DNA of 64,000 nt from Pseudomonadota bacterium (GTDB lineage: Bacteria; Desulfobacterota; Desulfobulbia; Desulfobulbales; JAHJIY01). Where the stretch lies: the NCBI GenBank assembly GCA_018823175.1, contig JAHJIY010000040.1, forward strand, positions 16,888-80,887. Reading direction: 5' to 3'. The position numbers and the translations under genes are program-made. Shown piece by piece: positions 11,070 through 62,356 of this stretch; within the stretch, counting starts at the first letter, position 1; the number at the start of each line of letters is the position of its first letter. The notes below the pieces were generated by a model, which ran no database searches, was not told where the DNA came from, and worked only from the letters and a program-made list of their open reading frames with translations.

Positions 11070-11087
11070 ATAATAATTGAGCCGAAA

Positions 11088-12353: not shown

Positions 12354-12355
12354 AA

Positions 12356-22827: not shown

Positions 22828-22942
22828 CGATCCAATCCTCCTCAACCTTCTTATTCAGCCAATTATTTCATTTTCCCGATCAATATCGGCTTTCTCTAAT
22901 AACTTTCGCTAAAACATTTACCTTTAATACCCAGCAAATAAG

Positions 22943-38887: not shown

Positions 38888-41779
38888 TTATTGTCTCCAT
38901 AAAGGGTTTGGAATAACCAATTTATAATCACCATCATCCCGGACCACATATACCCAGTAGCCCAGCCAGGGGACAAGCCTGGCCTCCGGGTCGCCGCCGG
39001 CGCTGGCAAAACCGTAAACCGAGCCCCAGTCTTCACCCTGGTATGAATAGATGGCGTTGACCAGAAGGTTGGCGGCGCAGGCCTCGGTCCAGGGCAGCGA
39101 ATCTTCATCATTACGCTGGAGCTTCACATCAGCCAATAAGACCTGTCCGCCATAAGGGTTGGTGATCATGTTCCAGCCGGGCAAGAGATCTACCGTGAAT
39201 TCCATTTCGCTGTGTTCGGGATAAGCGCTCAAGTCCGGCAGACTTGCCAGATTTTGCCGCTCGATAAAGTACCCCTGCCCTGGAGTGTTGAACCGATTGT
39301 TATCGTAATATTCGAAGGCCCCAATATTGCCGGCCGAGGAAAGACCTCCCGAAATCCAGCGGTAGATCCGGTCGCTGCCCAAAAGATCAGCCAGGTCGAT
39401 GCCGGCAAGCGCTTTGGCCAGCCCCACCATATTGGCGCCGGTTAAAAGTTCGATCACCGGGCCGGGTACGCCGTTGCTCCTGACCAGCGGATCAACTGAC
39501 GGCTCATAATCAGCACTGTCCCGTATTTCAACCTGGTAGCGGTGACTAGCGGCCGGTCCGAGCAGAGTATCAAAGCTGCAATCAACTACTCCACTAAAAT
39601 CAACCGGTTCGGAACCGCAGTCCATCTGTTGCGGATAACCGTTAAGGATCAGCCAGACCTTGCCAGCCGCCGGGTAATTAATCGTCGCCCGGAACCGGTA
39701 ATAAATATCAACTTTTGGTTTACCATCGACCAGATTAGCCGCGATATCGCCACCATCGACCCGGATAAAATCAACCGAATTTATACCCAGCTCAAAGAGG
39801 GCCGGATCATCGGGGAAGGCATCCACGTCGCCGCAGACCCCATCTCCATCAAGATCGTTGTCGGGATCATCGGGGCAGAGATCATCCTGGTCGGTTATGC
39901 CGTCACCGTCACTGTCCGGCAGAACGACTATACCGGTTGAAAACACCGTCGCCGTACTGTTGGACTGGCCCTGACCGTCGTCGGCGGTGACCGCGCAGGT
40001 AATGGTCTTGCCAACATCTGAGATGCCGGGTGAATAAACAGCGCCGGTGGCCCCTCCGATATCTCCCCCGTTGGCCTGCCACTGGTAGGAGAGGATGACC
40101 GGATTGCCATCTGGATCAATGGTATCGTTACCGGCAAGAGAAAGGGGGCTCCCCGGGACCGGTCGGCCGATAATAATCGGGGTTCCGATAAACTCAGGCG
40201 GATCGTTAAGGCCGGTGATCGTAATCGTGAAGGTCTGATTGGCCGAGGTATCCACCCCGCCATTAGCCGTCCCGCCGTCGTCATGGATCACCACCGTCAC
40301 CGTGGCGCTGCCGAAAGCATTGGCCGCCGGCGTGTAGGTCAACCCACCGGAGGGAGCAAGCGCCGGCTGGACGCTGAACAGGAGGTTATTATTATTGCTG
40401 AGGATAAAACTCAAACCCTGCCCTGCCTCATTGACCGGACCAGGGCTCAGGCCGGTGGCCCAGGCCGGGACCGACTGGCTGCCGCTATCTTCGTTAACCG
40501 TCTGGTCAGCGCCTTTGGTAAAAGAGGGCGCATCGTTGACGCCGGTGGTGGTCACCAGAGTGGAACCGTCGGCGGAACCAAGAGCGGTACCATCGTCGGG
40601 GGTGAGAGTGAAGCTGGTCAACACCGTAACGCCGGGCGCCACCTGATTAACCGTGGGGGAAAAGAGCAGCCCCCGTAAGTTTGACTGGACGGTGGCGGGC
40701 GCTGCGGCGATCAGGGTGTAGTTGCCAGCCGCCCCTCCCAGGCCGGTGCCGCTCAAAACGCCATTGGCTGCAGGATAGGTGATGGTGATACTGACATTAT
40801 CACCGTCAACATCGCCGACCGTCAGGCCACTGAAGGAGAAAATAGTCGCATTATCGGCCACCGTTCCGGCCGTGGTGAAGCTGCCGCCCAGCGTCGGCGC
40901 TGTATTACCGAGCTGAAGGCGGGTACTGGTTGCGGTCTGATCGTTGGAGCCGTAGCCGTCATCGGCCGTGACCACCAGCCGCAGGTATTTATGGGCCACC
41001 CCGGTCGTCGGGGTGTAGGTATTGGCGTTCGCCCCGATGATCGCCGCCTCATTGGCGCCGCCGGCGTCGTCGGCCTGATACCATTGATAGCTGTAGGTCG
41101 GAACATCGCCGTCCGCATCGTCCCAGGTGCCATTGCTGCCGGTCAGGACGTTGCCCACCAAGAGTGTACCACTGATGGCCGGAGGCACGGTATTAAACGA
41201 CGGATCATTGATCGAGGTGGCGGTCACCAGGGTGGAGCTATCGGCGCTGCCACTCTCCGTACCAAGGAAAGGGGTAAGGGTAAAGCTGGTCGCCACCGTC
41301 AAGCCAGGGGATACCTGATTGACGGTCGGGGTGAAAACCAGCGCCTGGAGATTACCGGTGACCGTGGCCGGAACAGCGGCGGCCAGGAGATAATTGCCGG
41401 CCACGCCGCTCAAACCGGCGCCGCTCAAGGTGCCATTGGCGCCGGGATAACTGATCGTAACACTGACCGGATCGCCACCGACCACGTCGACCGTCACTCC
41501 AGCAAAGGGGATAATGGTGGCATTATCGTCCACCGCCCCGTTGGTCAGAAAGCTGCCGCCCAGGGTCGGCGCCACGATCTCAAAGGTGAACACCGTGGCG
41601 CTGCCGGTGCCGGCGTAAACCATCTTGCCGTCCGCGCTGACCGTCAGGGCGGTGATCAGCCGGTTGCCCAGGCCGGTGGCAAAGGGGCCGCTGCCGGTCC
41701 ACTGGTTCCCGCCGGCACCTGCGGTCAACGGGAGGAACAGACCAAGGGCGGCGAACAGCAGGCAAAATAATCTATTCAT
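38888..41779 (-). CDS. Giant secreted surface protein 3 (963 aa): duplicated cadherin/Ig-like modules, TSP3-like repeats, shared CTD
   Basis: ATG 41779 with GAGAGGAG RBS gives MNRLFCLLFAALGLFLPLTAGA (the track ORF extends to 41809). APTLGGSF.T.G.V.DNATI..F.G.TV...G.D.VS.TI.YP.ANG.LSG.GL occurs twice. YSYQWYQADD and LSYQWQANG Ig-like units. DSDGDGITDQDDLCPDDPDNDLDGDGVCGD. The CTD ends YKLVIPNPLWRQ. Confidence 0.9.
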   Translation of the reverse strand: MNRLFCLLFAALGLFLPLTAGAGGNQWTGSGPFATGLGNRLITALTVSADGKMVYAGTGSATVFTFEIVAPTLGGSFLTNGAVDDNATIIPFAGVTVDVVGGDPVSVTISYPGANGTLSGAGLSGVAGNYLLAAAVPATVTGNLQALVFTPTVNQVSPGLTVATSFTLTPFLGTESGSADSSTLVTATSINDPSFNTVPPAISGTLLVGNVLTGSNGTWDDADGDVPTYSYQWYQADDAGGANEAAIIGANANTYTPTTGVAHKYLRLVVTADDGYGSNDQTATSTRLQLGNTAPTLGGSFTTAGTVADNATIFSFSGLTVGDVDGDNVSITITYPAANGVLSGTGLGGAAGNYTLIAAAPATVQSNLRGLLFSPTVNQVAPGVTVLTSFTLTPDDGTALGSADGSTLVTTTGVNDAPSFTKGADQTVNEDSGSQSVPAWATGLSPGPVNEAGQGLSFILSNNNNLLFSVQPALAPSGGLTYTPAANAFGSATVTVVIHDDGGTANGGVDTSANQTFTITITGLNDPPEFIGTPIIIGRPVPGSPLSLAGNDTIDPDGNPVILSYQWQANGGDIGGATGAVYSPGISDVGKTITCAVTADDGQGQSNSTATVFSTGIVVLPDSDGDGITDQDDLCPDDPDNDLDGDGVCGDVDAFPDDPALFELGINSVDFIRVDGGDIAANLVDGKPKVDIYYRFRATINYPAAGKVWLILNGYPQQMDCGSEPVDFSGVVDCSFDTLLGPAASHRYQVEIRDSADYEPSVDPLVRSNGVPGPVIELLTGANMVGLAKALAGIDLADLLGSDRIYRWISGGLSSAGNIGAFEYYDNNRFNTPGQGYFIERQNLASLPDLSAYPEHSEMEFTVDLLPGWNMITNPYGGQVLLADVKLQRNDEDSLPWTEACAANLLVNAIYSYQGEDWGSVYGFASAGGDPEARLVPWLGYWVYVVRDDGDYKLVIPNPLWRQ
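38891..39802 (-). other. Shared CTD, copy in giant 3
   Basis: The last 304 aa are homologous to the other CTDs. It contains the 240-nt tract (38939-39178) that is 97.5 percent identical to 49232-49471. Confidence 0.85.
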
Positions 41780-41792
41780 GGGGACTCCTCTC

Positions 41793-43055
41793 TTAATTCG
41801 GTAAGCCATTATTCATCTCCTGCCAGTTCGCACAATCATCGGTACTGACAAACACCCCCGCCTCGGTCCCGGCGTAGAGCTTACCGGTGGCATCAATGGC
41901 CAGGGAAACGACGTTCAGGTTGGTCAGATTGGTGTTGGCGCAGGCATCCCAGGTATCGCCGGAATCGCTGCTGGTGAAGATCCCGCTGCCGTAAGTCGCG
42001 GCATAGAGCTTCGTCGAATCGCCCGGCAGTATGACCAGCTCCTTGACCCGCAAGTTGGTCGGTTGGGTCGAGGCCCCGGTCCAGTTGGCGCCGGAGTCGG
42101 TGCTCTTGTAGATGCCGGCGCTGTCCAGCCCGCTATAGATGGTCGTGGGCGTGGCCGGGTCGATGACGATGCTGCCGGCGCTGATCGCCAGGGTGGCGAA
42201 TGACACCGGACCGACCAGTTGCGAGGCGTACCCGGTGGTGGTTTCCGTGGCGACCAGATAAAGGTCGTAACCGGTGCCGACGGCGAGGCCGGTCACCGCA
42301 AAGGTTTTCAGGGTCTTGCCGGTCATGGCGCCGGTGCCCGCCGCCGCTACCGTCACGCTACCGTAGGAGACGCCGGCAATCACCTGCGCGGGGGTAGGCG
42401 GCGTCGCGCCATAGGGGACGACCAGCCAATAGCCGCTACCATTCACCGGGCTGGTGGCGCTCAGGGTGGTGGTTGTGGTGGTGGTGCCGGCAACACCGCC
42501 GGGCAAAAGCGCAAAAGAACCAAAATACTGTCCGCCGCGAACCAACCGCACGTAGTAGTTGAACGTCTTATTGCCGGCGTTGGTGAAGCCGTAAGCAAAA
42601 CCGACGGCCCACGCAGCGGCTGGACTCGGAACATACGACGAACCGGACCAGAAGCCCGACGCAACTGTGTTAGGGAAAGCCGTCGTGTCGATGGTCGGGG
42701 AGCTACCCGTCTTGACCAGGGTCCGGAGTTCCACAAAGCTCGGCAACCGCCAGTCGGAGTAACCCTTGTAGTTGGCGGTGCTTCGGGTTGCGGCTAAATC
42801 CATGGCGCCCGCCCAGCTGTAGGACACGGACACACCGGTGGCACACCCAGCCCCGCTCAATCCGGCGGTGCACTGGTCCCACATCAAGCCGGTGGAGGTA
42901 TCGGTCACCGTGCCGTCGCCGTTATCGACAAAAGGCGGGTCGGCATGGGCGACGCCCACCCCGAGGGTGACAAGGGCAGCCAGCGTGACCAGGGCAAGCC
43001 CCAGAACGGGGTGGATTTTTATCGTGGTGGTGAGTCGATTTGGCAACGCTTTCAT
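41793..43055 (-). CDS. Secreted protein: DUF1566 (Lcl C-terminal/C-type-lectin-like) domain + Ig-like region + BNR/Asp-box repeats
   Basis: 420 aa; GAAGGAG RBS; signal peptide ...LVTLGVGVAHA. DNGDGTVTDTSTGLMWDQ and YSDWRLPSFVELRTL are DUF1566 hallmarks. Asp-boxes STDSGANW, SSDSGDTW, STDDCANW. The last ~130 aa are paralogous to the C-terminus of the 1866-aa protein. Confidence 0.85.
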   Translation of the reverse strand: MKALPNRLTTTIKIHPVLGLALVTLAALVTLGVGVAHADPPFVDNGDGTVTDTSTGLMWDQCTAGLSGAGCATGVSVSYSWAGAMDLAATRSTANYKGYSDWRLPSFVELRTLVKTGSSPTIDTTAFPNTVASGFWSGSSYVPSPAAAWAVGFAYGFTNAGNKTFNYYVRLVRGGQYFGSFALLPGGVAGTTTTTTTLSATSPVNGSGYWLVVPYGATPPTPAQVIAGVSYGSVTVAAAGTGAMTGKTLKTFAVTGLAVGTGYDLYLVATETTTGYASQLVGPVSFATLAISAGSIVIDPATPTTIYSGLDSAGIYKSTDSGANWTGASTQPTNLRVKELVILPGDSTKLYAATYGSGIFTSSDSGDTWDACANTNLTNLNVVSLAIDATGKLYAGTEAGVFVSTDDCANWQEMNNGLPN

Positions 43056-49183: not shown

Positions 49184-52100
49184 TCATTCTCCCCGTGGAT
49201 TTGGAATAATCAGTTTGTAATCCGCGTCATTCCGGACCACATAGACCCAGTAACCCAGCCAGGGGACAAGCCTGGCCTCCGGGTCGCCGCCGGCGCTGGC
49301 AAAACCGTAAACCGAGCCCCAGTCTTCGCCCTGGTATGAATAGATGGCGTTGACCAGAAGGTTGGCGCCGCAGGCGTCAGTCCAGGGCAGCGAATCTTCA
49401 TCATTACGCTGGAGCTTCACATCAGCCAATAAGACCTGTCCGCCATAAGGGTTGGTGATCATGTTCCAGCCCGGGGCCAGGGGCACGATGAATTGGGCAT
49501 CGGTATAATCCGGATATGCGCTCAGATCAGGTAGAGATGCCAGATTCTGCCGCTCGATAATATAACCCTGACCGGGAACATTAAACCGGTTGTTATCGTA
49601 ATATTCAAATGACCCGTTATTCCCGTCGCTGGAAAGACCGGAAGAGACCCAACGATAAATGATACTGCTGCCCAGCAGCTCTTCCAGGTCGATGCCGGCA
49701 AGCTCTTTGGCCAGCCCCACCATATTGGCGCCATTGAGAAGTTCGATTGTCGGACCAGGCTGCTCAAAGCTTTGGGCCAGCGGCGAAACTGATGGATCAT
49801 AATCAGATACCTGACGGACCTCGACATGATAGCCGTGGAATCCGGCCGGACCAAGATTGGTCTCAAAGCTACACTCCACCGGTATGCTGAAGTCCACCGG
49901 CTCTGTTCCACAATCCATTTGTTGCGGATAACCGTTGATCACCAGCCAGACACTGTCGGCACTAGCGGAATCAACCAGGGCTGAAAATCGGAAAATCACA
50001 TTCTGACTGGGGAGTAAACCGATACGATTATTCCAGGGATCTTCACCATCAGTCCGGACAAAACCGACCCGGTCGATGCCCGGTTCGAACAAGGCCGGAT
50101 CATTGGGAAAGCTGTCTGCGCCATCACAGACCCCGTCACCATCCGTATCGTTATTCGGATCATCGGGGCAACTATCATCCGAATCAGCAATACCATCGTT
50201 ATCCCGGTCTAAGACAGAGACGATGAACGATGCTTCAACCGTGCAGTCAATGATCACCGGTGCCGTAGTAAAAATGTTATTGATTAATACCCCGCCGCAG
50301 GTGCCACCCACGCTTCCGATTTTATAACCGGATTCCGGGGTCAAGGTAAACGAAATGACAGATCCGGCGTTAGTTATCAAATTAAAAGACGGACTGATCG
50401 TTCCGTGTTCGCCCATCGAGGGACTAACCGTATAGGTCACCGGTGGCGGCACATCATCATTGGATATCAACAATTGGGCGTTTGCTTGCGCACCTTGGGC
50501 AACACCGGAGTAATTACTCAAACTCAGATTAACCGTCTCAGCCGGCTCTACCGTTGAATCATCGATTATTGAAACCGAAAATGTTTTGGCAGCGCCATCA
50601 CCAAAGGCCCAATTCAAGATCCCGGCACTGGCGGTGTAATCGCTACCCGCGATTGCGGTACCGTTGGTTGTGGCATAATTAACCGAAACCGCGCCATCGG
50701 TGCTGCCGGTCCGGGTGGCGGTGATGGTGGCGGTGCCACCGTTTTCGGCAACGGAATAGGTGGCGCTGCTGAACTGGACCGAGCCAGGGGTATATTCAAA
50801 GGCCCCGATATCACAGGTAGCGGTGGTATCGAAATTACCGTCCGCCGGGCGGGCCATATCCCGCTGATCGGTTGGTTCGCAGGTGGCATTGTCACCGGCA
50901 TCAATGGCCGGACTGGTATACAGTAGACCAAGGGTCCGGGTCGGGCCGCCATGATCCAGTAAGGTGCCCAGGACCGGGTCACCGGAAAGGGCCGGTGAAC
51001 AGGTGTTGTCTTCGATCAGATTGTTGGTGTTGGTCGCGATGGTCCCGGTATTGAAGCAATCAGAGCCAAAACTGTTGGCGATGATCGTATTGAGAAAGTG
51101 AAGAGTCCCAACATTATAGATTCCACCACCATTGCCCGAGAAGGCCCAGTTCCCACTTATGGTATTATTTGCCAGGGTAAGAGTCCCGGTCGAATAAATG
51201 CCACCACCGTCGACATTGACACTGTCTTCCCAGAAGGTGCTGTTGGTGACGGTCGCCGTTCCGGTTGAGTAGATCCCACCACCGTTTCCAGCAGAGGTAT
51301 CATTTTCGAGGGTACAGCTAGTCACGGTCAAGGTGCCGCCGACATTGGCAATCCCGCCGCCATTGCCAGCCGTGAATCCGTGGTTTTCTCTGATGGTCGA
51401 ATGATCGATGGAGAGGATTCCGGCGTTTAAAATGCCGGCACCGTCAGCTGAGTCGACATAGCCATCTTGAACCGTTACATAGGAAAGATATACCACGGTC
51501 CCCCCGGAAATATTCAAAACCCGGGAGGCAGTGTTGCCGCTGATTACCAGGCTGGTGGCCGTGGGACCGGTAAAGGTCAGATTCTTGTTGATGGCCAACT
51601 CGCCGCTGGTCAGGGTGATGGTGCCGGAGATACCGGTCAGGTCAATGATATCACCGCTCGCCGCATCGGCAATGGCCTGCCGCAGGGAACCGGCCCCACT
51701 ATCGTTGGTATTGGTCACGATAATCGTCGCCGGAACATTACTCGCCGTGATGGTGTTGCCGGTGAGGTCGGAGGAATCGCCGGCGATGACGGCGGTATTC
51801 CAGTCATCAGCGGCCGCCAGATTATATGCAGTTGCATCAACGGAGGAGAGCCCTGACTTATTCAAAAGGAGATCAACCGCCGCTTTGTCCGTCGCACTGA
51901 GGATCAGGGTGAACTGGCTCGCGGAATCACGGTTGACGTCGGTCGTGTCGGTCAGGGTATAGGTGCCCCCGCCTTGCCCGGTGAAGGTGAGCCTTGAGGC
52001 GTCGAGATCACTGCCCCCACCATTGGCCTGAATATCGGTGCCGGTGACCACCAGGGTGCCGGTTGCAAAATCATAGGTCGCCGAGGTGATTTTGGGGTTG

Positions 52101-55100
52101 AAGATGACAGTCACACCATTGGGCCCGGCATCCGAAATATCCGGGATCACATCGGCCGCCGTCAGCCAGTCATCGGCCGCAGTGATGTTATAGGTTGTCG
52201 CATCATTGGATGAGGACCCCTGTTTATTCAGTAACAGATCAACTTGTGTTTTATCCCCACCTGCCAAAGTAAAGCTGAATGAGGTTGCAGCGGAGATTTC
52301 GACGTCTGAGGTCGTGGTGAGGGTATAGATGCCACCACCCTCACCGGTGAAGGTGAACATGGAAAGATCAACATCATTGGCCACCCCGATTTTACTGAAG
52401 AGGTTAGTGCCGGTAGCGACTACAGCTCCGGTATCAGTATTATAGACGGCCGAGGTAACGGTCGGGACCGCCACATTGCTGACGGTGATCCCGTTGCCGG
52501 TAAGATCAGAGATATCCATTGCCGCAGGGGCACCGGGGAGCCAGTTGTCGGCGGCCGCCAGGTTGTATGTCACTGTAGCGGAGGTCAGGCCATTCCGATT
52601 GAGAAGGCTATGAACATTGAGCTGATCGGTGGCGCTCAGGGTGACGGTGACAGACGTTGAACTGGTCAACTCAACATCGCTGGTGTCGGTCAGGGTATAA
52701 CTGCCTCCTTCACCGGTCACGGTCAAGGTCGAGGCATCGAGATCATTGGTGGCTCCACTGTTGCCGACCAGGTTGGTACCGGTGATCACCATTTGCCCGG
52801 TACTCCAGTCGAAGGTGGCCGAGGTGATGGTTGGCCCGGCGTAGTTACTGACGGTGATAGCATTGCCGGTAAGATCGGCAACAGCAACGGCCGGATCAGC
52901 GCCGGCCGCCCAGTCTTCGGCAGCGGCCAGATTGTAGGTGGTACCCCCTGCCGAGCTGATGCCGTTATTATTCAACAAGGCTTCAACGTTGGTGAGATCC
53001 GTCCCGGCCAGAGTGATGGAGAACTGGGTGGAGGAGGTGATCTCCACATCGCTCGCTGAAGTTAGAGTATGGGTTGTCCCCCCTTCACCGGTGAAGGTCA
53101 AGGTCGAGATATCGATATCGTTGGTCGCGCCGATTTTCGACAAAAAGCCGGTACCGGTTACCGCCAGCACATTGGTATTGGAATCATAGGTGGCGCTGGT
53201 GATGGTTGGGATGGCCACATTGCTGACCGTGATGCCGTTACCGGCCAGATCGGCCACCACCACCGCCGGATCCGCGCCCGCATTCCAGTCTTCGGCGGCG
53301 GCGAGGTTGTAGGTGGTGGCGCTGGTTGAGGCGGTGCCGTTTTTGTTCATGATCTGGTTGATCGCACCCTTATCGGTGGCGGAGAGGGTAAGGGTAGACG
53401 AAGTGCCGCTGGTAATCTCGACATTGGCGGTGTCAGTCAACGTATAGGTTCCGCCTTCACCGGTTACGGTGAATTTGTTGGCAACAATGTCGTTGGTCGA
53501 GCCGTTCAACTGAAGGAGACCGGTACCGGTTACGGCCAAGACTCCGGTGGCAGCATCATAGGTGGCGCTGGTGATGATCGGCACCGCCACGTTGCTGACG
53601 GTGATGCCGTTGCCGGTAAGATCGGCGACAACCACCGCTGGGTCGGCACCGCCAGCCCAGTCCTCGGCAGCGGCAAGGTTGTAGGTAGTGGCATTGGTGG
53701 AGCTAGTGCCATTTTTGTTCATAATTAGATTAAGCGCGGCCCGGTCGGTGCCATTGGTCATCACCGAGAAGGCCGTGCCACTGGTAATTTCCACACTGGC
53801 AGTAGTGAGCGTGTGGGTGCTACCACCCTCGCCGGTCAGGGTCAGTTTGGAGACATCGATGTCGTTGGTCGCCCCGTCAAACTTGAGGAATCCGGTGCCG
53901 GTAACAACCAGGGCGCCGGTGACAGCATTGTAAGTAGCTGTGGTGATGGTTGGGACAGCCACGTTACTGGCGGTGATAGGATTGCCGGTCAGGTCAGAGG
54001 TGTCGCCGGCGGTGACCTGGGCATCCCAGTCGTCAGCTGCAGCCAGATTATAGGTCGTGCCGTTGGTGGAGGCGGTACCGTTCTTATTGACGATCTGATT
54101 AATGCCAGCCTGATCCGTAGCACTCAAAACGAGGGTAAATGACGTCGCGCTGGAAAGCTCGACATTTGCCGAATCCGTCAGGGTATAGGTTGTGCCGCCT
54201 TCAGCCGTGAAGGTGAATTTATTGGCAGTAATATCATTGGTTACCCCGGCCATCGCCTGCATATTCGTGCCGGTCACCACCAGAGTGCCGGTGGCGGCGT
54301 TATAGGTGGCCGAGGTTATTTTCGGGTTGATCGAAACCGTTATCCCGTTGGTCGCGTCGGTGATGCTGGCTGCCGGATCCGCGCCGGCAAGCCAGTCATC
54401 AGCCGCCGCCAGATTATAAGTAGTGGCATCGGCAGCGCTGGTACCGAGCTGATTCAACAACGCATCGACGTTGGTTTTATCCGCACCGGACAGGGTGAGG
54501 GTAAAGGCCGTGGCCGAGGTGATCTCGACGTTCGATGCACTGGTCAGGGTATAAGCCGCCCCGCCGCCGCCCTGTCCGGTAAAGGTGAGTTTTGAGATAA
54601 CGATATCATTGCCTGGGCCGCCCTTCTTAAAAAAGTTGGTGCCGGTGACCACCACCACCCCGGTATCGGAGTCGTAGGTCGCGGACGTTATGGACGGCGT
54701 GGCGACGTTACTCACCGTAATCCCGTTGCCGGTCAGATCACTGATATTAGGCGTCGATGGCGCTCCAGGCAGCCAGTTATCTACCGCCGACAGGTTGTAG
54801 ATTACAGCACTGCTGGATACGGTGCCGTTCTTGTTCAGAAGACCGCGGACGATCAATTGCTCGGTGGCCGAAAGGGTCAGGGTGACGGTGGTGGCACTGG
54901 ACAGCTCCGCATCCGGGGTGTCGTTTAACGTATAGTTACCCGCCTCACCGGTGATGGTCACCGTGGAGGCGTCAAGATCATTGGTCGCACCAAATGCATT
55001 GACCAAATTGGTACCGGTTATGGCCAGCTGATCGGTAGCCCAATCATAGGTGGCACTGGTTATGGTCGGGGCCGTCCAGTTACTGACGGTGATAGCATTG

Positions 55101-58100
55101 GTTCCGTCGGTGATATCCACCGCCCCATCGGCGCCCCGATTCCAGTTATCAGCTGCCGCCAGGTTGTAGGTGGTGCTGCTATCGGAACTTGCACCGTCCT
55201 TGTTCAGCAGTCGTTCCACATTGAACAGATCGGCTCCGGACAGGGTGGCGGAAAACTGAGTGGCGGAGGTAATCTCCACATCGGTAGCCGTGGTCAGGGT
55301 GTACGTATTGCCTGCTTCGCCGGTAAAGGTGAACGTGGAGAGATCAATATCGTTGGTGGCCCCGGCAAATGGGAAGAACCCTGTCCCCGATACCGTCATG
55401 ACATTGGTGGCATAATCGTAGGTTGCCGAGGTAATGGTCGGCGCGGTCACATTGCTGACGGTAATGCCGTTCCAGGAATCAAGTACGACCACCGCCGGGT
55501 CCGCCCCGGCGGCCCAGTCTTCCGCCGCTTCCAGATTATAGGTCGTTCCACCGGTGGCGGTGGTGCCGTTCTTGTTCATGATCAGATTGACCGCAGCCTT
55601 ATCGGTCCCGCTCAAGGTCACGGTGAATGAGGTGGACGAGAAGATCTCCACATCAGCAGTCGAGGTCAAGGCATGGGTCGACCCACCCTCACCGGTGATC
55701 GTCAACTTGGCAACCACGATATCATTGTTGGCACCGCTCAACGACAGCAACCCTGTCCCGGTCACCACCAAAACTCCGGTGGAGGTATCATAGGTCGCAC
55801 TCGTGACGGTGGGCACGGCAACGTTGCTGGCGGTGATGCCGTTGCCGGTCAAGTCTGCAACGACCACCGCCGGATCCGACCCTGCCGCCCAGTCTTCCGC
55901 CGCCGCCAGATTGTAGGTGGTGGCACTGGTGGAGCTGGTGCCGTTCTTGTTGACATACAGATTGACACCCGCTTTATCGGTAGCGCTGAGGGTCAGGGTG
56001 AAAGCGGTGCCCGAGGTGATCTCGACGTTGGCGGTGTCGGTCAGGGTGTAGGTTCCGCCTTCGGCGGTGATGGTGAACTTGTTGGCCACGATATCGTTGG
56101 TGCCACCGGTCAGCTTAAGGAAGCCGGTGCCGGTCACCATCAGGTTACCGGTGGCGGCATCGTAGGTCGCCGAGGTGATGGCGGGGACTGCAACGTTGCT
56201 GACGGTGATACCGTTGCTGGCATCGGCGATCGAGCCCCCGGTGATAACCGTGTTCCAGTCATCGGCGGCAGCGAGATTGAAGATAGTACCACCGGTGGAG
56301 ACGGTACCGTTTTTGTTCAGCATCTGATTGACCGCCGCCTTGTCGGTGGCGCTGAGGGTAATGGAAAACCCGGTGCCGGAGGTGATCTCGACGTTAGCTG
56401 TGTCAGTCAGAGAGTAGGTCGCACCGCCTTCGCCTGTTACGGTGAATTTGTTGGCGGTGATGTCGTTGGTCGCGCCGATGGCGTTGACCATATTGGTTCC
56501 AGTTACCGCCAGCACACCGGTGCTGGCATCGTAGGTAGCTGAGCTGATGGTCGGGGTCTGTACGTTGCTGACGGTCACGCCGTTGCCGGTTAGATCGGCG
56601 TTACCGGCGTTGGCAGGATTCCAATCGGCGGCGGCAGCAATATTATAAGTTGTAATATCAGTGGATGAGGTGCCGTTTTTATTCAGCAAGCCTTCAACAT
56701 GTGTCTGATCGGCCGCATTCAAGGTCACGGTAAACGAGGTGGCCGAAGTGAGTTCAACGTTCGCCGAAGTCAGGGTGTAGCTGCCCCCAGCTTCCCCGGT
56801 GAGGCTCAATTTAGCGACATCGATGTCGTTGTTCGCCCCCCCGGTTGCGGTCAAGCCGGTTCCAGTCACGACCAGCGAGTTGGTGCTGGCATCGTAGGTG
56901 GCGGAGGTGATCGTGGGGCCTGTAGGAGCCGTTTCCCCCGCCAGAATCGAGCCATTAGGGGTATCGTTATAGGCGTAATCAAACATTGTCCGACCGAAAT
57001 TATTCGTCCCGGTGACCGTCATCCGAATCCAGCCGTAGTGGATACTCCCGGCTCGATCGAATTTTATCCCCAGATATTTACTGGTAGCATTAACCCATGG
57101 CCCTTGCGAACTGTAGACCATGACACCCCCATTGTTGGGGGCAAAGGTCTGGCCTGCACTGATCGCGGCATTGGTGGCCAGGGCCTTACCATACCAGTTC
57201 CACGTGTAAGTAGATACGGGTTGGGCTGTTTGAGGGATAACCAGCATTCTCATCCCGGCAGAACCGGTGACCCGAATGTCGGAGGCAGCTACCGCGGTCT
57301 GAGGTCCGAATTTGATAGTGATTTCGGTGTCGCCATCATTATCGATATCCACCGCGATGGTCTGGGTCGTCACATCCACCGGATCGGTGTAGATCACTGC
57401 GGCCGAGGCATCACGCCAGCCTGTTCCGACCAGCAAGGCCGTTCCTGAGAGGATGGCCAAGCCACTAACGGTGTTCAAGGAAAATCCTTGAAAGTTGTGC
57501 TTGGCCGTAAAAGTGGCCAGATGACTCACTGGAACCGCTTCAAACCCCAGACAGGGTGATTGTAGACCATCCCTATCTTGCGACGGACAAATATCTCCCC
57601 TAAGAATTTTCTCACCAGAAATATTTTTCAGCTCATGCCAAGACAGGCTATGTTGATAAGCCGGTGTGTGTCCGGGAAGAAAATGATATCCGAGGAAATC
57701 AAACCCGTTTGAGCTCTGCCCCAAGAAAAACGCGTCGTCTGATAGTGAAAGTCCGAGGGCCCCCAACTGTTCCAGGACGGCTGGCCTGACCTGATGCAGG
57801 GTCCATCGGGTGGGAGTGATCAAAAGCCACTCATCCATATAGCGGGCATAAAAGCCGTTCTGTCCGGTCAGCAGATCATCAAGCGCCTGCAGATACAACG
57901 AGGTCATGATTGGCGTCAGTGGGCTATCGATGGCGATCCCCGTATCCAATTCATAGAATGTGCCATTATCTGAGACCGTTTGATGCAAGTATCGCCACAG
58001 GAGCTGCTGGAGAGATGGTTCTTCGGGAAAAGCCTCGGACAATTTCCGGTAAAGGATTGAGTGATCAATCTGCCCGCAGAAATTCTGGAGGTCTCCCCGC

Positions 58101-58507
58101 ATCACCCAGGACTGGCTATTTGCCTGAAGGTAGTCATCAGCCGTTTTTACCGCCCCATCAATCCCGGCAGCCCCGAGCCGGTAAAAACCCCGGTTCGCCA
58201 ATGCGCGAGAGAGATGTTCCTCCATTACTAACCCCATGGCCTTGAGGACGATGAGATCACCGACCTCATAGACATCCTGCGAGATCCCGTTCCGCAGAAC
58301 CCTGGTTCGGACTTGAAAGCAGTAACTCCCCGAAACAAATTGTTGCCGAATCACCGCTTTTAGTTGCAACCAGTTCCCAGGGCTGACAACATCCCGTAAT
58401 TGCGTATCCTGAAGCCACTGAAAGGCTGCCTCCAGACATGAATCCGCAGAAATTTTGGCCATTAACGGTTGAGCTGCTGAATCTTGATCCATGATGTCAC
58501 CATTCAC
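49184..58507 (-). CDS. Giant surface protein 4 (3107-aa maximal ORF): RT-like N-terminal region in frame, signal-peptide-like segment, 14 x ~123-aa tandem repeats, parallel beta-helix, Calx-beta-like, InlB-B-like, TSP3-like repeats, shared CTD
   Basis: Uninterrupted ORF from GTG 58507. Aa ~344-369 ([26 protein letters not shown]) look like a signal peptide, so the adhesin may start independently at GTG 57529. [19 protein letters not shown] opens the beta-helix, which ends [28 protein letters not shown] is Calx-beta-like. [30 protein letters not shown]. The CTD ends [11 protein letters not shown]. Confidence 0.85.
49187..50095 (-). other. Shared CTD, copy in giant 4
   Basis: The last 303 aa are homologous to the other CTDs. 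This is the only copy not followed by family S and family L genes. Confidence 0.85.
51734..56917 (-). repeat. Coding tandem array: 14 repeats of ~370 nt (~123 aa) in giant gene 4
   Basis: Each unit starts P.(I/V)T(S/T)A(T/V)(Y/F)(D/N)...G.L.VTGT and contains NDI....(F/L)T.TGEGG..YTLT...VE(I/L)(T/S)S.T.F..TLS..D......(L/M)NKNGT.S.....YNLAAA.DW and ends GNGITVSNV. Units are diverged (roughly 50-70 percent aa identity). Confidence 0.85.
57530..58507 (-). other. Reverse-transcriptase-like (RVT_1-type fingers/palm) region at the 5' end of the giant ORF
   Basis: Aa 1-326. Motif-1/2-like [13 protein letters not shown]...[16 protein letters not shown]; motif 3 [22 protein letters not shown]; motif 4 [22 protein letters not shown]; motif 5 [12 protein letters not shown] (YMDE at 57830-57841 where RTs have YxDD); motif 6/7 GFDFLGYHF. 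No thumb/X domain and no stop codon before the adhesin part. Visibly less GC-rich than the adhesin body by eye (not counted). Confidence 0.65.
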
Positions 58508-58880
58508 GTATTAATCATACCTAACAAAGGATTTTGCAATGTAAAACAACAAACTCAAGAGGATAGAATTTGGTGTATAAATAGTGTAAAAAGCCTTTTC
58601 TTAAATTATTGAGTTTTGTACCTGAAGACAAGGTTTATCGTATAACATGGCATCTTTGACCTTAAAAAAATATATTGTATCCCACAGCGTGGGAAAGAAA
58701 ATATGACGTTCGAAGCTGCAAGTAAACAGGCACGTGCCATACTCTCCCGACAGGAGCAACCATTCGATTATCTTTATTAATAAAAAAACTGTACAATTAA
58801 GCATTAGCCATTTTTGATATACGGATCCCTAAAATCATATCCATAATCTTTTGCCCCGGCACTACTTAACAGGAGTCTGC

Positions 58881-59147
58881 ATGCCAGAATTGAATCATCC
58901 GCCCAACCCTGTATCAGTCGATAAAAAGACAAAACAGGAAGACACCATCTCTGCCGAAGGGATGTTGGGTCTACTGGCTCTGGGAGCTGCTGGCCTCTCC
59001 GCCTGGCGAAAACGACGGGCTGAAGTTGAGGGTAAAGACTGGCGCGACACCCTTGCCCATCAAGTTGCCTCCATCGAAAAGGAGGCCGGGGGCGGCGACA
59101 ACGAAAAACCCTCATCTATAAAAACACAACCGGTTCAGGATCCGTAA
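58881..59147 (+). CDS. Small membrane protein (88 aa) upstream of and overlapping the AlkP-TPR-sulfotransferase gene
   Basis: ATG 58881 with AGGAG 6 nt upstream (the track ORF starts at 58851). Single TM segment GMLGLLALGAAGLSAW followed by RKRR. Its TAA overlaps the next ATG (TAATG at 59145-59149). Confidence 0.55.
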   Translation: MPELNHPPNPVSVDKKTKQEDTISAEGMLGLLALGAAGLSAWRKRRAEVEGKDWRDTLAHQVASIEKEAGGGDNEKPSSIKTQPVQDP

Positions 59148-61900
59148 TGCCCCCCCTAACCAGAAAGGTCCTGTTAATCGGCTGGGATGCCGCCGATTGG
59201 AAGATCATTCATCCCCTGATCGACAGCGGCAAGATGCCGACCCTTAAACGCTTTATTGAAGAAGGGGTAAGCGGCAACCTGGCAACCCTTGACCCGCCGC
59301 TGTCCCCTATCATGTGGACCTCCATCGGCACCGGCAAGACCGCTGACAAACATGGCGTTCTCGGTTTCACCCAGCCCCGGCGCGACGGGCTGGGCATCCA
59401 ACCGGTACTGTCCAGCTCCCGCAAGGTCAAGGCCCTGTGGAATATCCTGATGCAGGAGGGATTCAAAACCCATGTGATCGGTTGGTGGCCAAGTCATCCC
59501 GCAGAAAAACTCAATGGCGTTTCAATTTCGAATTTCTTCCATCACGTAACCGGCCCGGTCAACCAACCCAACCCTATGCCCCCGGGATCGGTCCAACCCG
59601 AGCGACTGGCCGCCACCCTGGAAGAGTTACGAATCCATCCCCATGAATTAACCGCCCAACACATCCTGCCCTTTGTTCCCAATGCCGCCACCATTGACCA
59701 GCGCCAAGATCCCCGCCTCTATGGAGTTGCCAAAATTACCGCTGAGTGCGCAACAGTTCAGGCAGCCGCCACCTGGGTCATGGAGAATGAACCATGGGAC
59801 TTCATGGCGGTCTACTTCGATGCTATCGATCATTACTGTCACGGCTATATGAATTTCCACCCTCCATACCGACAAGGAATCCCCAGAAAACTGTTCGAAA
59901 ACTACCAAGATGTGGTGACCGGTGGCTATCTGTTCCATGACATGATGCTCGAGCGTTTACTGGACCTGGCTGGTCCCGAAACGACGGTCATTCTCTGCTC
60001 CGATCACGGTTTTCATTCCGACCATCTCCGGCCGGGAAGCGTCCCCGATGAACCGGCCGGCCCCGTCATCGAGCATCGGAATTACGGGATCATCGCCATG
60101 CATGGCCCCGGCATTGCCAAGGACGAACTGATTTTTGGGGCTTCACTACTTGATATCACCCCAACGATCTTATCGCTGTTCGGCCTGCCGGTGGGCGCTG
60201 ATATGGACGGCAAACCCCTCGTTTCTGCCTTTGAACGGCCAATGATCCCCAAGGTTATTGAAAGCTGGGAAACCGTCAAAGGTGACAGCGGCATGATGAA
60301 TAAAGAACAGCTCGGTGATCCCTGGGCGGAACAAGCAGCCCTGGAACAATTGGTGGAACTGGGCTATATCGATCCGCCGGACCAGGATGCCCAGAAGGCC
60401 ATTAACTCATGCCAACGCGAGTCAAAATTCTACCTGGCATGTACCTTCCTCTACAAAAATGCCCATAGTAAAGCCTTGCCTCTACTGGAAGAGCTGTTTG
60501 AGGAACAACCTGACCAGACCAGATTCGGCCTCCGCTTGGCCAAATGTTACCAAATGCTGGGGAAAATCAGCGAGGCAAGAGAGGTTACCGATAGGACGAT
60601 CAGCGCCTGGGAAGAGCATCGTCTTGAGAAGGAACGCGAAATCCGGGAAAAAACAAAGGAACTGGGGCAACCGGAAATTGATTCAAACAGCCCCCCCCAA
60701 CGCCCCGCTCCCGCACTGGATCTCTTGCAAGGCTCTCTCCTGCTGGCCGAAGGCAAGCCGGAAGAAGCTCTGATTGCCCTGCAAAGAGCCCAAAAAGCCT
60801 TACCCAGGATGCCTGCTCTTCATCTAAGGCTGGGACAGACCTATCTCAGAATGAACCGCCTGCAGGATGCCGAAGAAGCCCTCTTCCAGGCCCTCGAGAT
60901 CGACCCGGAATGCGCCGAGGCCTTTCACGGGCTCTCAACCGTATATCTGAGAATGCGTTATTATCAGGAGGCTTACGAGGCAGCAGCCACCTCCCTTGGG
61001 CTGATCTTTCACAATCCATCCGCCCATTACAATCTTGGAGAAGCCACCTTCAGACTTGGCGACTTTAAGGGGGCGGAAACCTCTTGGCTCAACTGCATCA
61101 ATCAGGCACCCGGCATGAAAAAAGCCCATGACAAACTCATTACCCTATATCAACGTTTTTTACCCGATCCCCTCAAGGTCTTGGAACATCAATGCTTCAT
61201 TGCTGAAAAAATCATCCCCTACCAAAATACGCTCAAAGGAGAACAACCTACCAAGAACGATAACCTCAGACCGGAAAAGGAAAATACGGGCAGGATCACC
61301 GAAGTCGATTGTACCAAAAAATTCAATCTACCTTCTGCGGAAGTGATCACCATCGTTTCCGGCCTACCCCGCTCAGGAACCTCGATGATGATGCAGATTT
61401 TGACCCAGGGGGGGCTACCGCCGCTAACCGACATCCTACGAGAAGCAGACACCAACAATCCCAAGGGCTATTATGAATTTGAACCGGTCAAATCACTCTC
61501 CAGAGGACAGTTCGATTGGTTACAGGACGCAAAGGGCAAGGTTGTTAAAGTTATTGCCCAGCTCTTACCGGCACTGCCTACCAACTACCATTACCGGATT
61601 ATATTTATGCAGCGGGATATGAATGAAATCCTGCAATCCCAACGAACCATGCTGGCGGAGCTGCATCGCAAACAGGAAGAAAACAGTCAATCATTAGCTG
61701 CAAGCTACCAGGCCCAACTGACCCGCCTCGAGTCCTTTCTCAACAAGCAATCCAATATGGAGGTTCTCCATATCGCTCACCGTGATGTACTCAGCAATCC
61801 AATGGCACAAGTCCAAAGGGTCGCAACTTTCCTGGATATTCCATTCGACACCGAAAACGCTGCCGCCGCAGTTGATCCGTCATTATACCGGGCCAAATAA
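59147..61900 (+). CDS. Fusion protein: alkaline-phosphatase-superfamily (type I phosphodiesterase/nucleotide pyrophosphatase-like) domain + TPR repeats + sulfotransferase domain
   Basis: 917 aa. VLLIGWDAADWKII...MWTSIGTGKTADKHGV and VILCSDHGF are AlkP-core motifs. TPR-like helices span aa ~440-680. IVSGLPRSGTSMMMQIL is a PAPS-binding P-loop of sulfotransferases. Confidence 0.85.
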   Translation: MPPLTRKVLLIGWDAADWKIIHPLIDSGKMPTLKRFIEEGVSGNLATLDPPLSPIMWTSIGTGKTADKHGVLGFTQPRRDGLGIQPVLSSSRKVKALWNILMQEGFKTHVIGWWPSHPAEKLNGVSISNFFHHVTGPVNQPNPMPPGSVQPERLAATLEELRIHPHELTAQHILPFVPNAATIDQRQDPRLYGVAKITAECATVQAAATWVMENEPWDFMAVYFDAIDHYCHGYMNFHPPYRQGIPRKLFENYQDVVTGGYLFHDMMLERLLDLAGPETTVILCSDHGFHSDHLRPGSVPDEPAGPVIEHRNYGIIAMHGPGIAKDELIFGASLLDITPTILSLFGLPVGADMDGKPLVSAFERPMIPKVIESWETVKGDSGMMNKEQLGDPWAEQAALEQLVELGYIDPPDQDAQKAINSCQRESKFYLACTFLYKNAHSKALPLLEELFEEQPDQTRFGLRLAKCYQMLGKISEAREVTDRTISAWEEHRLEKEREIREKTKELGQPEIDSNSPPQRPAPALDLLQGSLLLAEGKPEEALIALQRAQKALPRMPALHLRLGQTYLRMNRLQDAEEALFQALEIDPECAEAFHGLSTVYLRMRYYQEAYEAAATSLGLIFHNPSAHYNLGEATFRLGDFKGAETSWLNCINQAPGMKKAHDKLITLYQRFLPDPLKVLEHQCFIAEKIIPYQNTLKGEQPTKNDNLRPEKENTGRITEVDCTKKFNLPSAEVITIVSGLPRSGTSMMMQILTQGGLPPLTDILREADTNNPKGYYEFEPVKSLSRGQFDWLQDAKGKVVKVIAQLLPALPTNYHYRIIFMQRDMNEILQSQRTMLAELHRKQEENSQSLAASYQAQLTRLESFLNKQSNMEVLHIAHRDVLSNPMAQVQRVATFLDIPFDTENAAAAVDPSLYRAK

Positions 61901-62356
61901 CCTCCCGCATTTTTCCACTCACAAGACTCGGAGTCTCCTTATAGTCGCTTACCTCGAGCTACAGGGAATGTGCCGCAAAGCAAATACTCTTGGAGTGCGT
62001 TTCGCTTCCCATGTTCAAGGTAACCAGAAAGTTGCTCATCTAGAGCTCCTTCCAGGATTAATGAAGAGTAGATTTTGTCGACCTTCAAAGTTCAAATTAG
62101 GCAGGCGTAACTTAATGGTCGCAGTGATGATATGTTTTAAAACAAATCAATTTCAAAAGATGAAAGTTTGAAAGAGTCGGTAGAAGATGATAGTCAAAGA
62201 ATGTTCGCCATAAAATGAATAAAAAAATGTATTTCTTATTGGTTATTGCACATACCCTTTCCGTCCGTTATGGTTTCCGGCATAATCATTAATTTTCACG
62301 AAACATTGCAGATTACAATTCCTTTATCTATCAATAGTTCAAGACAGGAACTTTCG

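Follow-up and report, generated by a model that had tools for sequence, protein, structure and literature searches.

Why does the gene for a giant adhesin open with a region that resembles a reverse transcriptase (RT)? Within the window, a 64,000-nucleotide stretch of bacterial DNA, one minus-strand open reading frame (49184..58507) encodes, in order, an RT-like domain, a linker, a predicted internal signal peptide and the adhesin itself. A sequence-only reading of this DNA had offered three explanations: a decayed retroelement RT fused to the adhesin by chance, a separate short RT gene followed by an adhesin with its own internal start, or a genuine RT-like N-terminal domain. The observations behind that reading hold. 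The frame is present and measures 3107 aa when counted from GTG 58507, the RT motif strings all occur in the translation in the order given, no stop codon falls between the RT region and a hydrophobic segment at aa 344-369, and the codon at 57830-57832 is indeed GAG. NCBI annotates the product as a hypothetical protein of 3102 aa starting at ATG 58492; the same protein sequence carries two NCBI accessions and is encoded on 2 contigs. We consider ATG 58492, which is preceded by GGTGA 5 nt upstream, the likely start, giving a protein of 3102 aa. Further upstream, TGTACA-17-GATAAT (58767..58795, minus strand) is a weak consensus match and the only sigma-70-like match on the adhesin strand within the scanned 57300-59300. 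The RT region has the marks of coding sequence: its frame of ~340 open codons cannot be put down to chance, since the probability of such a run is (61/64)^340 ~1e-7, and its codon-position GC (0.59/0.39/0.59) is the same as that of a bona fide neighbouring gene.

Profile searches and structure prediction agree on what this region is. An N-terminal extension, fingers and palm with motifs 1-7 span 57632..58492 (minus strand). The PADLOC model RT_UG4 matches aa 44-292 at E=2.3e-46 (156 bits; profile positions 31-274 of 307), and the second-best PADLOC model, a generic RT, reaches E=4e-24. Pfam RVT_1 scores 39.2 bits over aa 125-276, above its gathering cutoff of 29.6 (E=8e-10). An AlphaFold model has a pLDDT of ~85-94 over aa ~10-275 (numbered from ATG 58492), and Foldseek ranks G2L4 and group II intron RTs as its best solved matches (E=1e-15 to 3e-14, TM ~0.65-0.68), with RTs of diversity-generating retroelements (DGRs) also present at lower rank. 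RT_UG4 was likewise the top profile for every relative tested, including RTs from E. coli and Salmonella plasmids. Together, profile matches and the predicted fold confirm that the first ~290 residues of the adhesin are a real RT domain and place it in the UG4 group of UG/Abi RTs (class 2). The sequence-only reading was right to see here a region resembling an RT in which one catalytic Asp is replaced; the retron, group II or DGR-like origin suggested for it gives way to UG4.

Searches for hallmarks of those other retroelement classes point the same way. A whole-window repeat search for a template/variable repeat (TR/VR) pair recovered only coding paralogue domains and intragenic tandem repeats, in line with the failure of the sequence-only reading to find such a pair. 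The only long repeat touching the adhesin 3' end is a tract shared with a 973-aa paralogue, and its mismatches are mixed. Neither of the two flanking ORFs tested is Avd-like, one being a 98-aa ORF without a Pfam match and the other a 917-aa protein, and no DGR model appeared among the RT family profile matches. The expectation that an RT beside diversifying surface proteins would belong to a DGR is therefore not supported. The retron model retron_St85_RT scored 12 bits (E=0.093), below its cutoff of 235. TIGR04416, the group II RT model, aligned with aa 84-290 but reached 72.6 bits where 300 are required, and no X/maturase domain follows. An Rfam search of 57400-59300 returned no RNA family at E<=1, intron RNA included; Rfam covers few retron RNAs, so that for a retron RNA this negative result is weak. 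The defining features of a DGR, a retron or a group II intron RT/maturase were accordingly not found within the window.

Several conserved catalytic residues of the RT domain are eroded. Motif C (57830..57841, minus strand) reads Y-M-D-E in place of the family consensus F/YMDD, which appears as FMDD or YMDD in 123 of the 150 aligned relatives covering this motif; the final Glu226 is encoded by GAG at 57830-57832. The Lys that 94% of the family carry in motif D is Ala259 here (codon gcg, 57731..57733). Overall, 31 of 42 family-conserved positions are retained and 11 lost, against a median of 93% retention among relatives. Besides YMDE, the substitutions include Y143F, Y144C, G194D, S198T, K259A and T260F, and both the motif A Tyr-Tyr and the GGxK element are missing. 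An intact F/YMDD together with conserved motifs A, B and D is thus not what the window copy has, and two relatives have decayed further, to FQSE in P0044 and VLDG in P0139. The sequence-only reading had also stated that there is no thumb/X domain. An X domain is indeed absent; the family does possess a short thumb of ~45 aa (RRDxxIxRLYEQGA...RWxxW), which relatives conserve and which is degenerate in the window (57479..57631, minus strand): its motif is unrecognizable by alignment with relatives, and the AlphaFold pLDDT drops below 50 from about residue 280. We looked for a frameshifted thumb in 57380-57760 and rejected it, since both other frames are closed and contain no RRDxxIxRLYEQG motif. 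From these substitutions we conclude that the RT-like domain probably no longer copies RNA. Asp139 of motif A and Asp225 are still in place, and an Asp-to-Glu change in motif C with both of them kept is no proof of inactivity.

The RT domain meets the adhesin at a predicted internal signal peptide (aa 344-369; 57401..57478, minus strand) of 26 residues that ends in an AxA site before AV. No 15-mer downstream of motif 7 is more hydrophobic than the one it contains (Kyte-Doolittle 1.88), which is followed by RDASA|AV. As judged from the sequence, the n-h-c layout with small residues at -3 and -1 is present, with stretches of 15 and 17 residues leading into WRDASA|A, and the signal-peptide-like character noted earlier is borne out. 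Homologous segments carry comparable (-3,-1) sites of the A/V/S-x-A type (SHA|T, AHA|A and VQA|A). Paralogues C and D open directly with ordinary signal peptides, so that aa 344-369 occupies the position expected of one. The window also offers two possible internal starts near this point, TTG 57478, with AAGGA 6 nt upstream, and GTG 57529 (codon confirmed at 57529-57527), from which the adhesin could also, or mainly, be made without its RT part. The GTG has no Shine-Dalgarno sequence, and starting at the TTG would give a signal peptide devoid of a charged n-region. A stable RNA stem-loop is predicted across the junction (57440..57540, minus strand; MFE -36.8 kcal/mol, z=-4.2), with none of 200 shuffles equally stable and control segments of the window at z of ~0 to +2.3. 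Its core 8-bp hairpin (57474-57492) sequesters AAGGA and TTG 57478, and GTG 57529 sits at its 5' edge. When we checked homologous junctions, the hairpin was not conserved.

To place this architecture among its relatives, we relied on an exhaustive HMMER search, which brought the family to light; a word-index homologue search with the RT region gave only 7 weak matches, a 20-sequence profile added nothing useful, and the locus scan used a 5-sequence alignment. Among the 37 closest cluster representatives at 50% identity, 20 continue for 150 aa or more past the RT match. In the fused relatives an RT and thumb are followed by a hydrophobic segment bearing small (-3,-1) residues and then by Ig, fn3, PEP-CTERM or autotransporter-type regions, and most of them retain F/YMDD. 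In a neighbour-joining tree the fusions fall in two adjacent clades, with the window copy on a long branch. Homology to P0044 and P0139 covers the RT, the linker, the signal segment and the first adhesin domain, and in BLASTP against P0044 it runs across the junction from aa 8 to 618. The RT fold is kept across lineages at 25-40% identity. Recurrence of the same RT-signal-secreted architecture in two neighbouring clades contradicts a chance fusion, and on this comparison of sequences the RT-adhesin fusion is not a chance event. Start codons tell a similar story in loci of large sulfur bacteria: L011 has no ATG, GTG or TTG in the 40 codons before the h-region, and the nearest in-frame start lies 30 codons before it in L010 and 24 in L009. 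The clade Y junctions L089 and L090, for their part, have a TTG two codons before the h-region. Metagenome scans found no relative more than 50% identical to the window protein, and the P0044/P0159 pair of the degenerate clade is, at 99.8% identity, uninformative for dN/dS.

Unfused members of the family were also compared. Stand-alone UG4-like RTs in other genomes generally had no secreted-protein gene after them, the exceptions being L022, L035 and the E. coli locus L087, and a C-terminal membrane helix was generally absent from canonical UG4 RTs. Plasmid UG4 RTs of E. coli lie inside Pef/K88-type chaperone-usher operons, and those of Salmonella adjoin inverse-autotransporter adhesins. The family's association with fimbrial or adhesin genes takes the form of a direct fusion in the window. 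Here the first domain of the mature adhesin (56903..57400, minus strand; D-I-D-x-D-G ... YGWI ... YAYND) aligns with P0044 and P0139, where it is inherited together with the RT and signal segment; it matches no Pfam or NCBIfam family, and its AlphaFold model (pLDDT 43) is unusable. A stalk of ~13 tandem repeats of ~124 aa (366-375 nt) follows at 51935..56902, and then come a choice-of-anchor Q domain (50792-50980) and a Calx-beta domain (50456-50788), together spanning 50456..50980. The C-terminal domain of ~190 aa (49187..49760), like the preceding features on the minus strand, is shared with three paralogous surface proteins in the window, and over its final ~235 nt it differs little from the 973-aa paralogue. 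We read this tract as gene conversion between paralogues; its mismatches are not adenine-specific, and it ends before the stop codon and 3' UTR. Among the window ORFs tested there were no secretion-system genes, and neither type I secretion genes nor RTX repeats were present.

We favour the view, and hold it to be reasonably probable, that the UG4 fingers and palm joined a secreted giant adhesin long ago as its N-terminal module, and that they are now catalytically eroded and left as a cytoplasmic stub tethered by the signal segment. This corresponds to the third of the original explanations, the one best supported by the UG4 profile, the fold and the recurrent architecture. The full-length protein would be made from ATG 58492, and the RT-like domain would fold in the cytoplasm. 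The segment at aa 344-369 would then direct insertion by Sec, as an internal signal or signal-anchor that keeps the N-terminus inside and places the C-terminus outside, and signal peptidase I would cut after ASA369 to free the adhesin, leaving an RT-like stub of ~370 aa tethered at the inner membrane. Because the catalytic core is eroded, the stub is most likely not a processive polymerase; it may instead be a nucleic-acid-binding or regulatory pseudo-RT that works in cis where its own protein is exported during translation.

Could the locus instead make two products from one frame, with the adhesin initiated at TTG 57478 or GTG 57529, the RT frame serving as a leader ORF that opens the hairpin, and the fusion being minor or unstable? 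The stem-loop sequesters exactly the AAGGA and the TTG, a classic arrangement for translational coupling, the AAGGA lies 6 nt before the TTG, the paralogues begin directly at signal peptides, and misjudged ORF boundaries were suspected in UG4-fimbrial fusions by Mestre et al. 2022 (PMC9226505). Yet with no stop codon in the way, ribosomes from upstream necessarily continue into the adhesin. The TTG yields no charged n-region and the GTG has no Shine-Dalgarno sequence, in relatives the 24-40 codons that precede the segment include no possible start, the hairpin is not kept in homologues, and retention of the RT fold at 25-40% identity argues for a function at the protein level. We therefore regard two products as rather unlikely. 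A separate short RT gene, as once proposed, is not literally true since its frame has no stop codon; what survives of that proposal is a possible additional internal start at either codon. An accidental in-frame fusion with a decayed RT whose 3' part was deleted is far less probable still: the degenerate thumb, the eroded catalytic residues and the long branch agree with it, and the decay it foresaw is real, but ~20 other cluster representatives share the architecture, homology to P0044 and P0139 runs from the RT into the first adhesin domain, and the frame has stayed open, with a confidently predicted fold, at 25-40% divergence.

Further readings grant the RT an activity. In one, which we judge improbable, YMDE is tolerated and the enzyme, attached to its own nascent chain and mRNA, reverse-transcribes in cis, which could cause gene conversion between paralogues or movement of an RT-plus-signal-peptide cassette to new surface-protein genes. 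Asp139 and Asp225 are retained, most fused relatives keep F/YMDD, and the ~235-nt near-identical tract joins the 3' end of adhesin A to that of the 973-aa paralogue. In nine pairs of relatives, moreover, DNA homology of an RT-plus-signal cassette stops 0-29 nt past the cleavage site; L093 and L094 are 91% identical at the nucleotide level between -185 nt and +29 nt, and the sequences on either side are unrelated. Simon & Zimmerly 2008 described two UG4 copies more than 90% identical that share ~100 bp of 5' flank and no 3' identity (PMC2602772). Against this, the motif D Lys is gone from the window copy, as are the motif A YY, the GGxK element and the thumb, and the conversion tract, stopping short of the 3' UTR, is explained by ordinary homologous recombination. 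The window carries one RT copy and one cassette only, the L093/L094 3' boundary fades with no clean break, and neither an ncRNA nor a template emerged from the Rfam search of 57400-59300. More speculatively, and with equally little confidence, the RT, signal peptide and ~185-nt 5' leader may form a self-contained 5' cassette that provides expression, secretion and RT functions and is joined to many unrelated surface-protein genes, with the RT acting in cis, either in cassette movement or recombination by reverse transcription or in control of adhesin output; the window copy would be a domesticated, decayed descendant. Such an RT would stay attached to the emerging polypeptide at the translocon, and through it to the mRNA that encodes it; it could therefore act strictly in cis, and this would be an undescribed coupling of a retroelement enzyme to protein secretion. 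That the RT serves a DGR aimed at the adhesin family is the least credible reading. It adjoins variable surface proteins, and DGR RTs are among its structural matches, below G2L4 and group II RTs; the best profile is nonetheless UG4 with no DGR model among the family matches, there is no TR/VR pair and no adenine-specific mismatch pattern in the window, neither tested flanking ORF is Avd-like, and the catalytic core is eroded.

Our favoured reading, a fused and eroded UG4 module, bears on a group with few leads. UG4 RTs are known from fimbrial and adhesin loci (PMC8934634, PMC9226505), myRT places fimbrial domains near 66% of them (PMC8934634), and the group shows no defence enrichment (PMC9226505), which leaves it among the few bacterial RT groups without a defence association or known function. 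The literature is split on whether UG4-fimbrial fusions are real: Mestre et al. 2022 failed to find the one reported by Zimmerly & Wu 2015 and suspected ORF-boundary errors (PMC9226505). In-frame fusions do occur, as the window and its relatives demonstrate, and in several relatives an independent start codon cannot account for the secreted part. Canonical UG4 RTs, class 2 UG/Abi enzymes of Proteobacteria, share with the window RT the motif set, the small RT with a short thumb as its plan, and the link to surface adhesion. They are separate genes of ~300-370 aa with intact F/YMDD (stand-alone sizes of ~280-370 aa are given in PMC2602772), whereas the window RT is no such small stand-alone protein: an internal signal peptide links it to a 2,700-aa adhesin, its motif C reads YMDE, ten further conserved positions are lost and its thumb is degenerate. 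Its closest solved folds belong to G2L4 and to group II intron RTs (GsI-IIC), but unlike group II RTs it comes without a maturase/X domain, an intron RNA match in the Rfam search of 57400-59300 or evidence of mobility or splicing. DGRs likewise link an RT genetically to variable surface-exposed proteins; the window RT is of a different clade, has no TR/VR pair in the window and no Avd-like gene among the flanking ORFs tested, and has an eroded active site.

Precedents for the proposed arrangement lie outside these groups. Catalytically dead RT-fold domains have been exapted elsewhere, as in the RT-like domain of spliceosomal Prp8, which has kept the fold, lost the polymerase residues and become embedded in a larger non-polymerase protein, as we propose here. 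The window RT differs from it in lineage and cellular context, and its inactivity is inferred. Adhesins also carry N-terminal extensions, examples being the autotransporter ESPR and the LapA-type retention module. These too place extra N-terminal sequence before or at a giant adhesin's export signal, where it could tether the protein or time its export, but they are short peptides or small dedicated domains, in contrast to the ~340-aa enzyme fold found here. An RT fold can evidently persist as a probable pseudo-enzyme, and a single RT-adhesin polypeptide provides a tractable handle on the role of RTs in adhesin loci. For annotation, such genes should neither be labelled 'retron-type RT' nor be split at the signal peptide.

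The fusion also keeps company with a conserved, divergently transcribed neighbour. A small ORF and the 917-aa phosphodiesterase/TPR/sulfotransferase protein occupy 58851..61900 on the plus strand, and the latter shares 58-60% identity with the gene that lies immediately upstream of the RT fusions in L002/L086, L003 and L009. This gene accompanies RT-adhesin fusions in four loci.

The RT-like domain at the start of the giant adhesin is real and was correctly spotted; it is neither an artefact nor a diversity-generating retroelement (DGR). Its ORF, 49184..58507 (-), encodes 3,107 aa counted from GTG, and NCBI starts it at ATG 58492 to give a 3,102-aa hypothetical protein in the 'Proteobacteria bacterium' MAG GCA_018812655.1 (contig JAHJDI010000032.1). 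As two NCBI accessions and two contigs carry the identical protein, the RT/adhesin junction has been recovered more than once. All of the RT motif strings quoted in the sequence-only reading lie in the translation in the order it gave. The GAG codon is confirmed at 57830-57832 and the GTG at 57529, and the frame runs stop-free from the RT region to the hydrophobic segment at aa 344-369, an h-region followed by RDASA↓AV. Codon-position GC of the RT region (0.59/0.39/0.59) equals that of the neighbouring 917-aa gene and differs from upstream intergenic DNA. Upstream of the RT start, region 58508-58850 is AT-rich, non-coding on the minus strand and free of Rfam matches; it contains one weak promoter-like site (58795-58767) and, with a small plus-strand ORF, makes up a divergent control region of ~640 bp.

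Profile searches assign the domain to UG4, a group of UG/Abi RTs. The Pfam RVT_1 score is 39.2 bits, above the gathering cutoff of 29.6. With PADLOC, aa 44-292 align to positions 31-274 of the 307-position RT_UG4 profile at E=2.3e-46; the second-best PADLOC model reaches 4e-24, and NCBIfam models for group II intron, Drt3a, Drt2 and retron RTs score far under their cutoffs. An AlphaFold model, built on a thin alignment of 9 sequences, has pLDDT ~85-94 at residues ~10-275 and disorder past ~280. Compared with solved structures, the model comes closest to G2L4 RT and the group II intron RT GsI-IIC (E=1e-15 to 3e-14), with DGR and DRT9 RTs ranking next. The profile and structure matches therefore show the domain to be a true UG4-group RT with a fingers-and-palm fold. 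Published UG4 proteins are short, at 278-347 aa, and may be mobile (PMC2602772); they were confined to Proteobacteria in a 2014 survey (PMC4244168), have fimbrial genes nearby in 66% of cases (PMC8934634) and show no enrichment in defence islands (PMC9226505). Zimmerly & Wu 2015, as cited by Mestre et al. 2022 (PMC9226505), described UG4 as 'fused to fimbrial domains', whereas Mestre et al. did not find UG4-fimbrial fusions and suggested that the earlier claim reflected inaccurately predicted ORF boundaries (PMC9226505). Our literature search found no functional studies of UG4 after these papers.

Fusion recurs among relatives of the window protein. An exhaustive HMMER search covering 1.84 billion cluster representatives returned 3,374 hits, 38 of them under 1e-30, and 20 of the 37 closest cluster representatives continue for at least 150 aa past the RT match. 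Fused relatives share a layout in which the RT leads into a short thumb (RRDxxIxRLYEQGA...RWxxW), a hydrophobic segment closed by small-x-small sites (SHA↓T, AHA↓A, VQA↓A), and exported-type regions with fn3, Ig-like, choice-of-anchor and PEP-CTERM ends or, in the relative P0044, an autotransporter barrel. In a rough neighbour-joining tree built from 96 RT cores, the fusions fall almost entirely into two clades that lie side by side, with the window protein on a long branch beside P0139; the rest of the tree is made up of stand-alone RTs of 300-400 aa. Species-representative genomes of Thiotrichaceae, Thiomargarita and Candidatus Parabeggiatoa carry fused forms in ORFs of 1246, 1300 and >1873 aa. 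In these three loci no in-frame ATG, GTG or TTG occurs for 24, 30 and >40 codons ahead of the hydrophobic segment, so the exported part is not a separately initiated gene there.

These comparisons bear on the three explanations raised for the junction. One is a decayed retroelement RT joined to the adhesin by chance. BLASTP against P0044 gives unbroken homology over aa 8-618 of the window protein, spanning the RT, linker, signal segment and first adhesin domain. Given this homology and the recurring layout, we reject chance fusion; both observations support a genuine RT-like N-terminal domain, and fusion is a trait of the family. The remaining proposal, an independent short RT gene with the adhesin starting internally, survives in part. 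Since the RT frame never terminates, the RT is not an independent gene even with an internal start, yet we keep alive the idea that such a start also contributes to adhesin synthesis. Ahead of the hydrophobic segment lie two in-frame starts: GTG 57529, which lacks a Shine-Dalgarno sequence, and TTG 57478, which has AAGGA 6 nt upstream but would yield a signal peptide without a charged n-region. In favour of a contributing internal start, a 101-nt stem-loop at 57440-57540 (-) spans the RT/signal-peptide junction (-36.8 kcal/mol, z=-4.2, 0/200 shuffles as stable), and its core hairpin pairs AAGGA with TTG 57478. Equivalent regions in seven homologues give z of -1.4 to +0.2 and three control segments of the same gene -0.1 to +2.3, so the stable structure is specific to this locus.

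The domain is a fused UG4 RT with a decayed catalytic core, a variant of a group whose presence beside fimbrial and adhesin genes was known before. Motif C reads FMDD or YMDD in 123 of 150 aligned relatives covering it (the relative P0011, for one, has an intact YMDD), and the exceptions are mostly long fusions: YMDE in the window protein, YMDG in P0023 and P0036, YRDE in P0052, FQSE in P0044 and VLDG in P0139. Of the 42 columns that at least 80% of the family conserve, the window protein retains 31 (74%; family median 93%). Its losses include the motif A Tyr-Tyr (F143, C144), Gly and Ser of motif B (D194, T198), the second Asp of motif C (E226) and the motif D Lys-Thr (A259, F260), and its GGxK element and thumb are unrecognisable. 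A frameshifted thumb was ruled out, as other reading frames hide none. The fold and many structural positions, LLWxYL and PTRWxL among them, are kept in three lineages only 25-31% identical, a pattern that fits a domain retained for non-catalytic use. Weak activity may still exist, because the catalytic aspartates D139 and D225 remain.

The sequence-only reading found the setting to be as expected for a DGR while reporting no template/variable repeat (TR/VR) pair. The latter was borne out: in a repeat search of the whole window, every repeat recovered was an intragenic tandem repeat, a paralogue domain or a repeated downstream cassette. The expectation itself was not, given the UG4-type RT, mixed-type mismatches and the missing TR/VR pair in the window. 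A 300-nt repeat at the 3' end of the RT-adhesin gene, 91% identical to 38904-39203, was considered as a TR/VR pair and rejected. It includes a near-identical tract of ~235 nt shared with the gene of a 973-aa paralogue, with few mismatches of mixed type, that ends before the stop codon; identity just upstream is ~75%. The tract suggests recent gene conversion between paralogous C-terminal domains. No Rfam families were found in 57400-59300.

In proteins of the large-sulfur-bacterium type, the RT-plus-signal module is 56-94% identical and the mature parts are essentially unrelated. In nine pairs of loci, DNA homology stops 0-29 nt beyond where cleavage is predicted. Two loci, L093 (3816-5094) and L094 (538-1830), share 1293 nt at 91% nucleotide identity. 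This stretch starts 185 nt ahead of the start codon, stops 29 nt beyond the cleavage site and takes in leader, RT and signal peptide. Outside it the flanks are unrelated; the homology breaks off sharply on the 5' side and fades on the 3' side, and the shared leader opens with a repeated AATCAGCGT...AATCATGA motif. The L093 fusion ORF ends after 485 aa, with a >1837-aa Cadherin_4 ORF 44 nt later, and looks like a frameshifted fusion. The pair echoes near-identical UG4 copies noted in 2008, which had a 5' flank in common and unrelated 3' flanks (PMC2602772). These observations prompt a bolder, improbable reading in which leader, RT and signal peptide would form a cassette that becomes joined to differing surface-protein genes.

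We propose that translation would begin at ATG 58492 and the RT-like domain would fold in the cytoplasm. Residues 344-369 would then engage Sec as an internal signal, and the adhesin would be threaded outward, with signal peptidase I cutting after ASA369 to free it. The RT-like stub would remain tethered to the membrane and serve in something other than polymerisation, for example RNA binding or cis regulation. We are highly confident that a UG4-type domain is genuinely fused here and that the fusion is conserved, moderately confident that the domain does not work as a polymerase, and less so of the processing details; the full package we rate as somewhat probable. At the sequence level the existence of UG4-adhesin fusions is settled, and the window protein and its relatives offer a handle on what the UG4 group does.

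A 917-aa phosphodiesterase/TPR/sulfotransferase gene without a signal peptide, 59147..61900 (+), diverges from the RT-adhesin gene. Its product is 58-60% identical to that of the gene directly upstream of, and co-directional with, RT fusions in L002/L086, L003 and L009. Cytoplasmic-looking proteins of this type (917-949 aa) thus adjoin fusions in four independent loci and are far better conserved than the RT-adhesins. A small ORF precedes the gene in the window, L003, L086 and L009, wherever upstream sequence is available (spans with any small ORF: window 58851-61900 (+); L002 3-2534; L003 3016-6004; L086 4909-7933; L009 2711-5642). In L003 (1-3222) and L086 (769-5142) the operon that carries this gene and the fusion also includes Asp/Arg beta-hydroxylase, DUF6916, GNAT acetyltransferase and three phage-tail-Collar-domain genes. 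GNAT and Collar genes follow the fusion in L089 (5158-6287) as well, and the window lacks all of these. A signal peptidase I gene (Peptidase_S26, 326 aa; 62246-63226 (+)) comes directly after the 917-aa gene, which puts it ~4 kb away from the internal signal peptide. It is probably housekeeping lepB, since the fusions in L003 and L086 have no such gene nearby. Among the window ORFs tested, none proved to be a secretion-system gene.

Neither the RT nor the post-signal domain has a second copy in the window; paralogous adhesins C and D have ordinary signal peptides right at the N-terminus. Four minus-strand surface-protein genes (49184..58507, 38888..41809, 30753..35477, 16525..22845) have a ~190-aa C-terminal domain in common, with shared DNA at 49197-49496, 38904-39203, 16547-16846 and 30775-31074. 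Three of them are each followed by a conserved two-gene cassette (15417-16528, 29701-30756, 37824-38865) encoding a 157-aa protein without a Pfam match and a 163-173-aa Big_5 Ig-like protein, with the first small gene's start overlapping the stop of the adhesin. In place of this cassette, the RT-adhesin is followed by a 1866-aa CLIPPER-domain protein. IncF plasmids of Salmonella carry a canonical UG4 RT gene convergent with an inverse-autotransporter adhesin gene (1,500-1,800 aa), the two overlapping by ~19 nt at the 3' end of the adhesin gene (L085 5953-7059 (+) / 7041-12515 (-); L084 7001-7837 / 7832-12532); one plasmid record leaves the RT unannotated. Elsewhere in the window, a 906-aa protein (358-3078 (-)) consists nearly throughout of pentapeptide repeats (Pfam E=1e-124).
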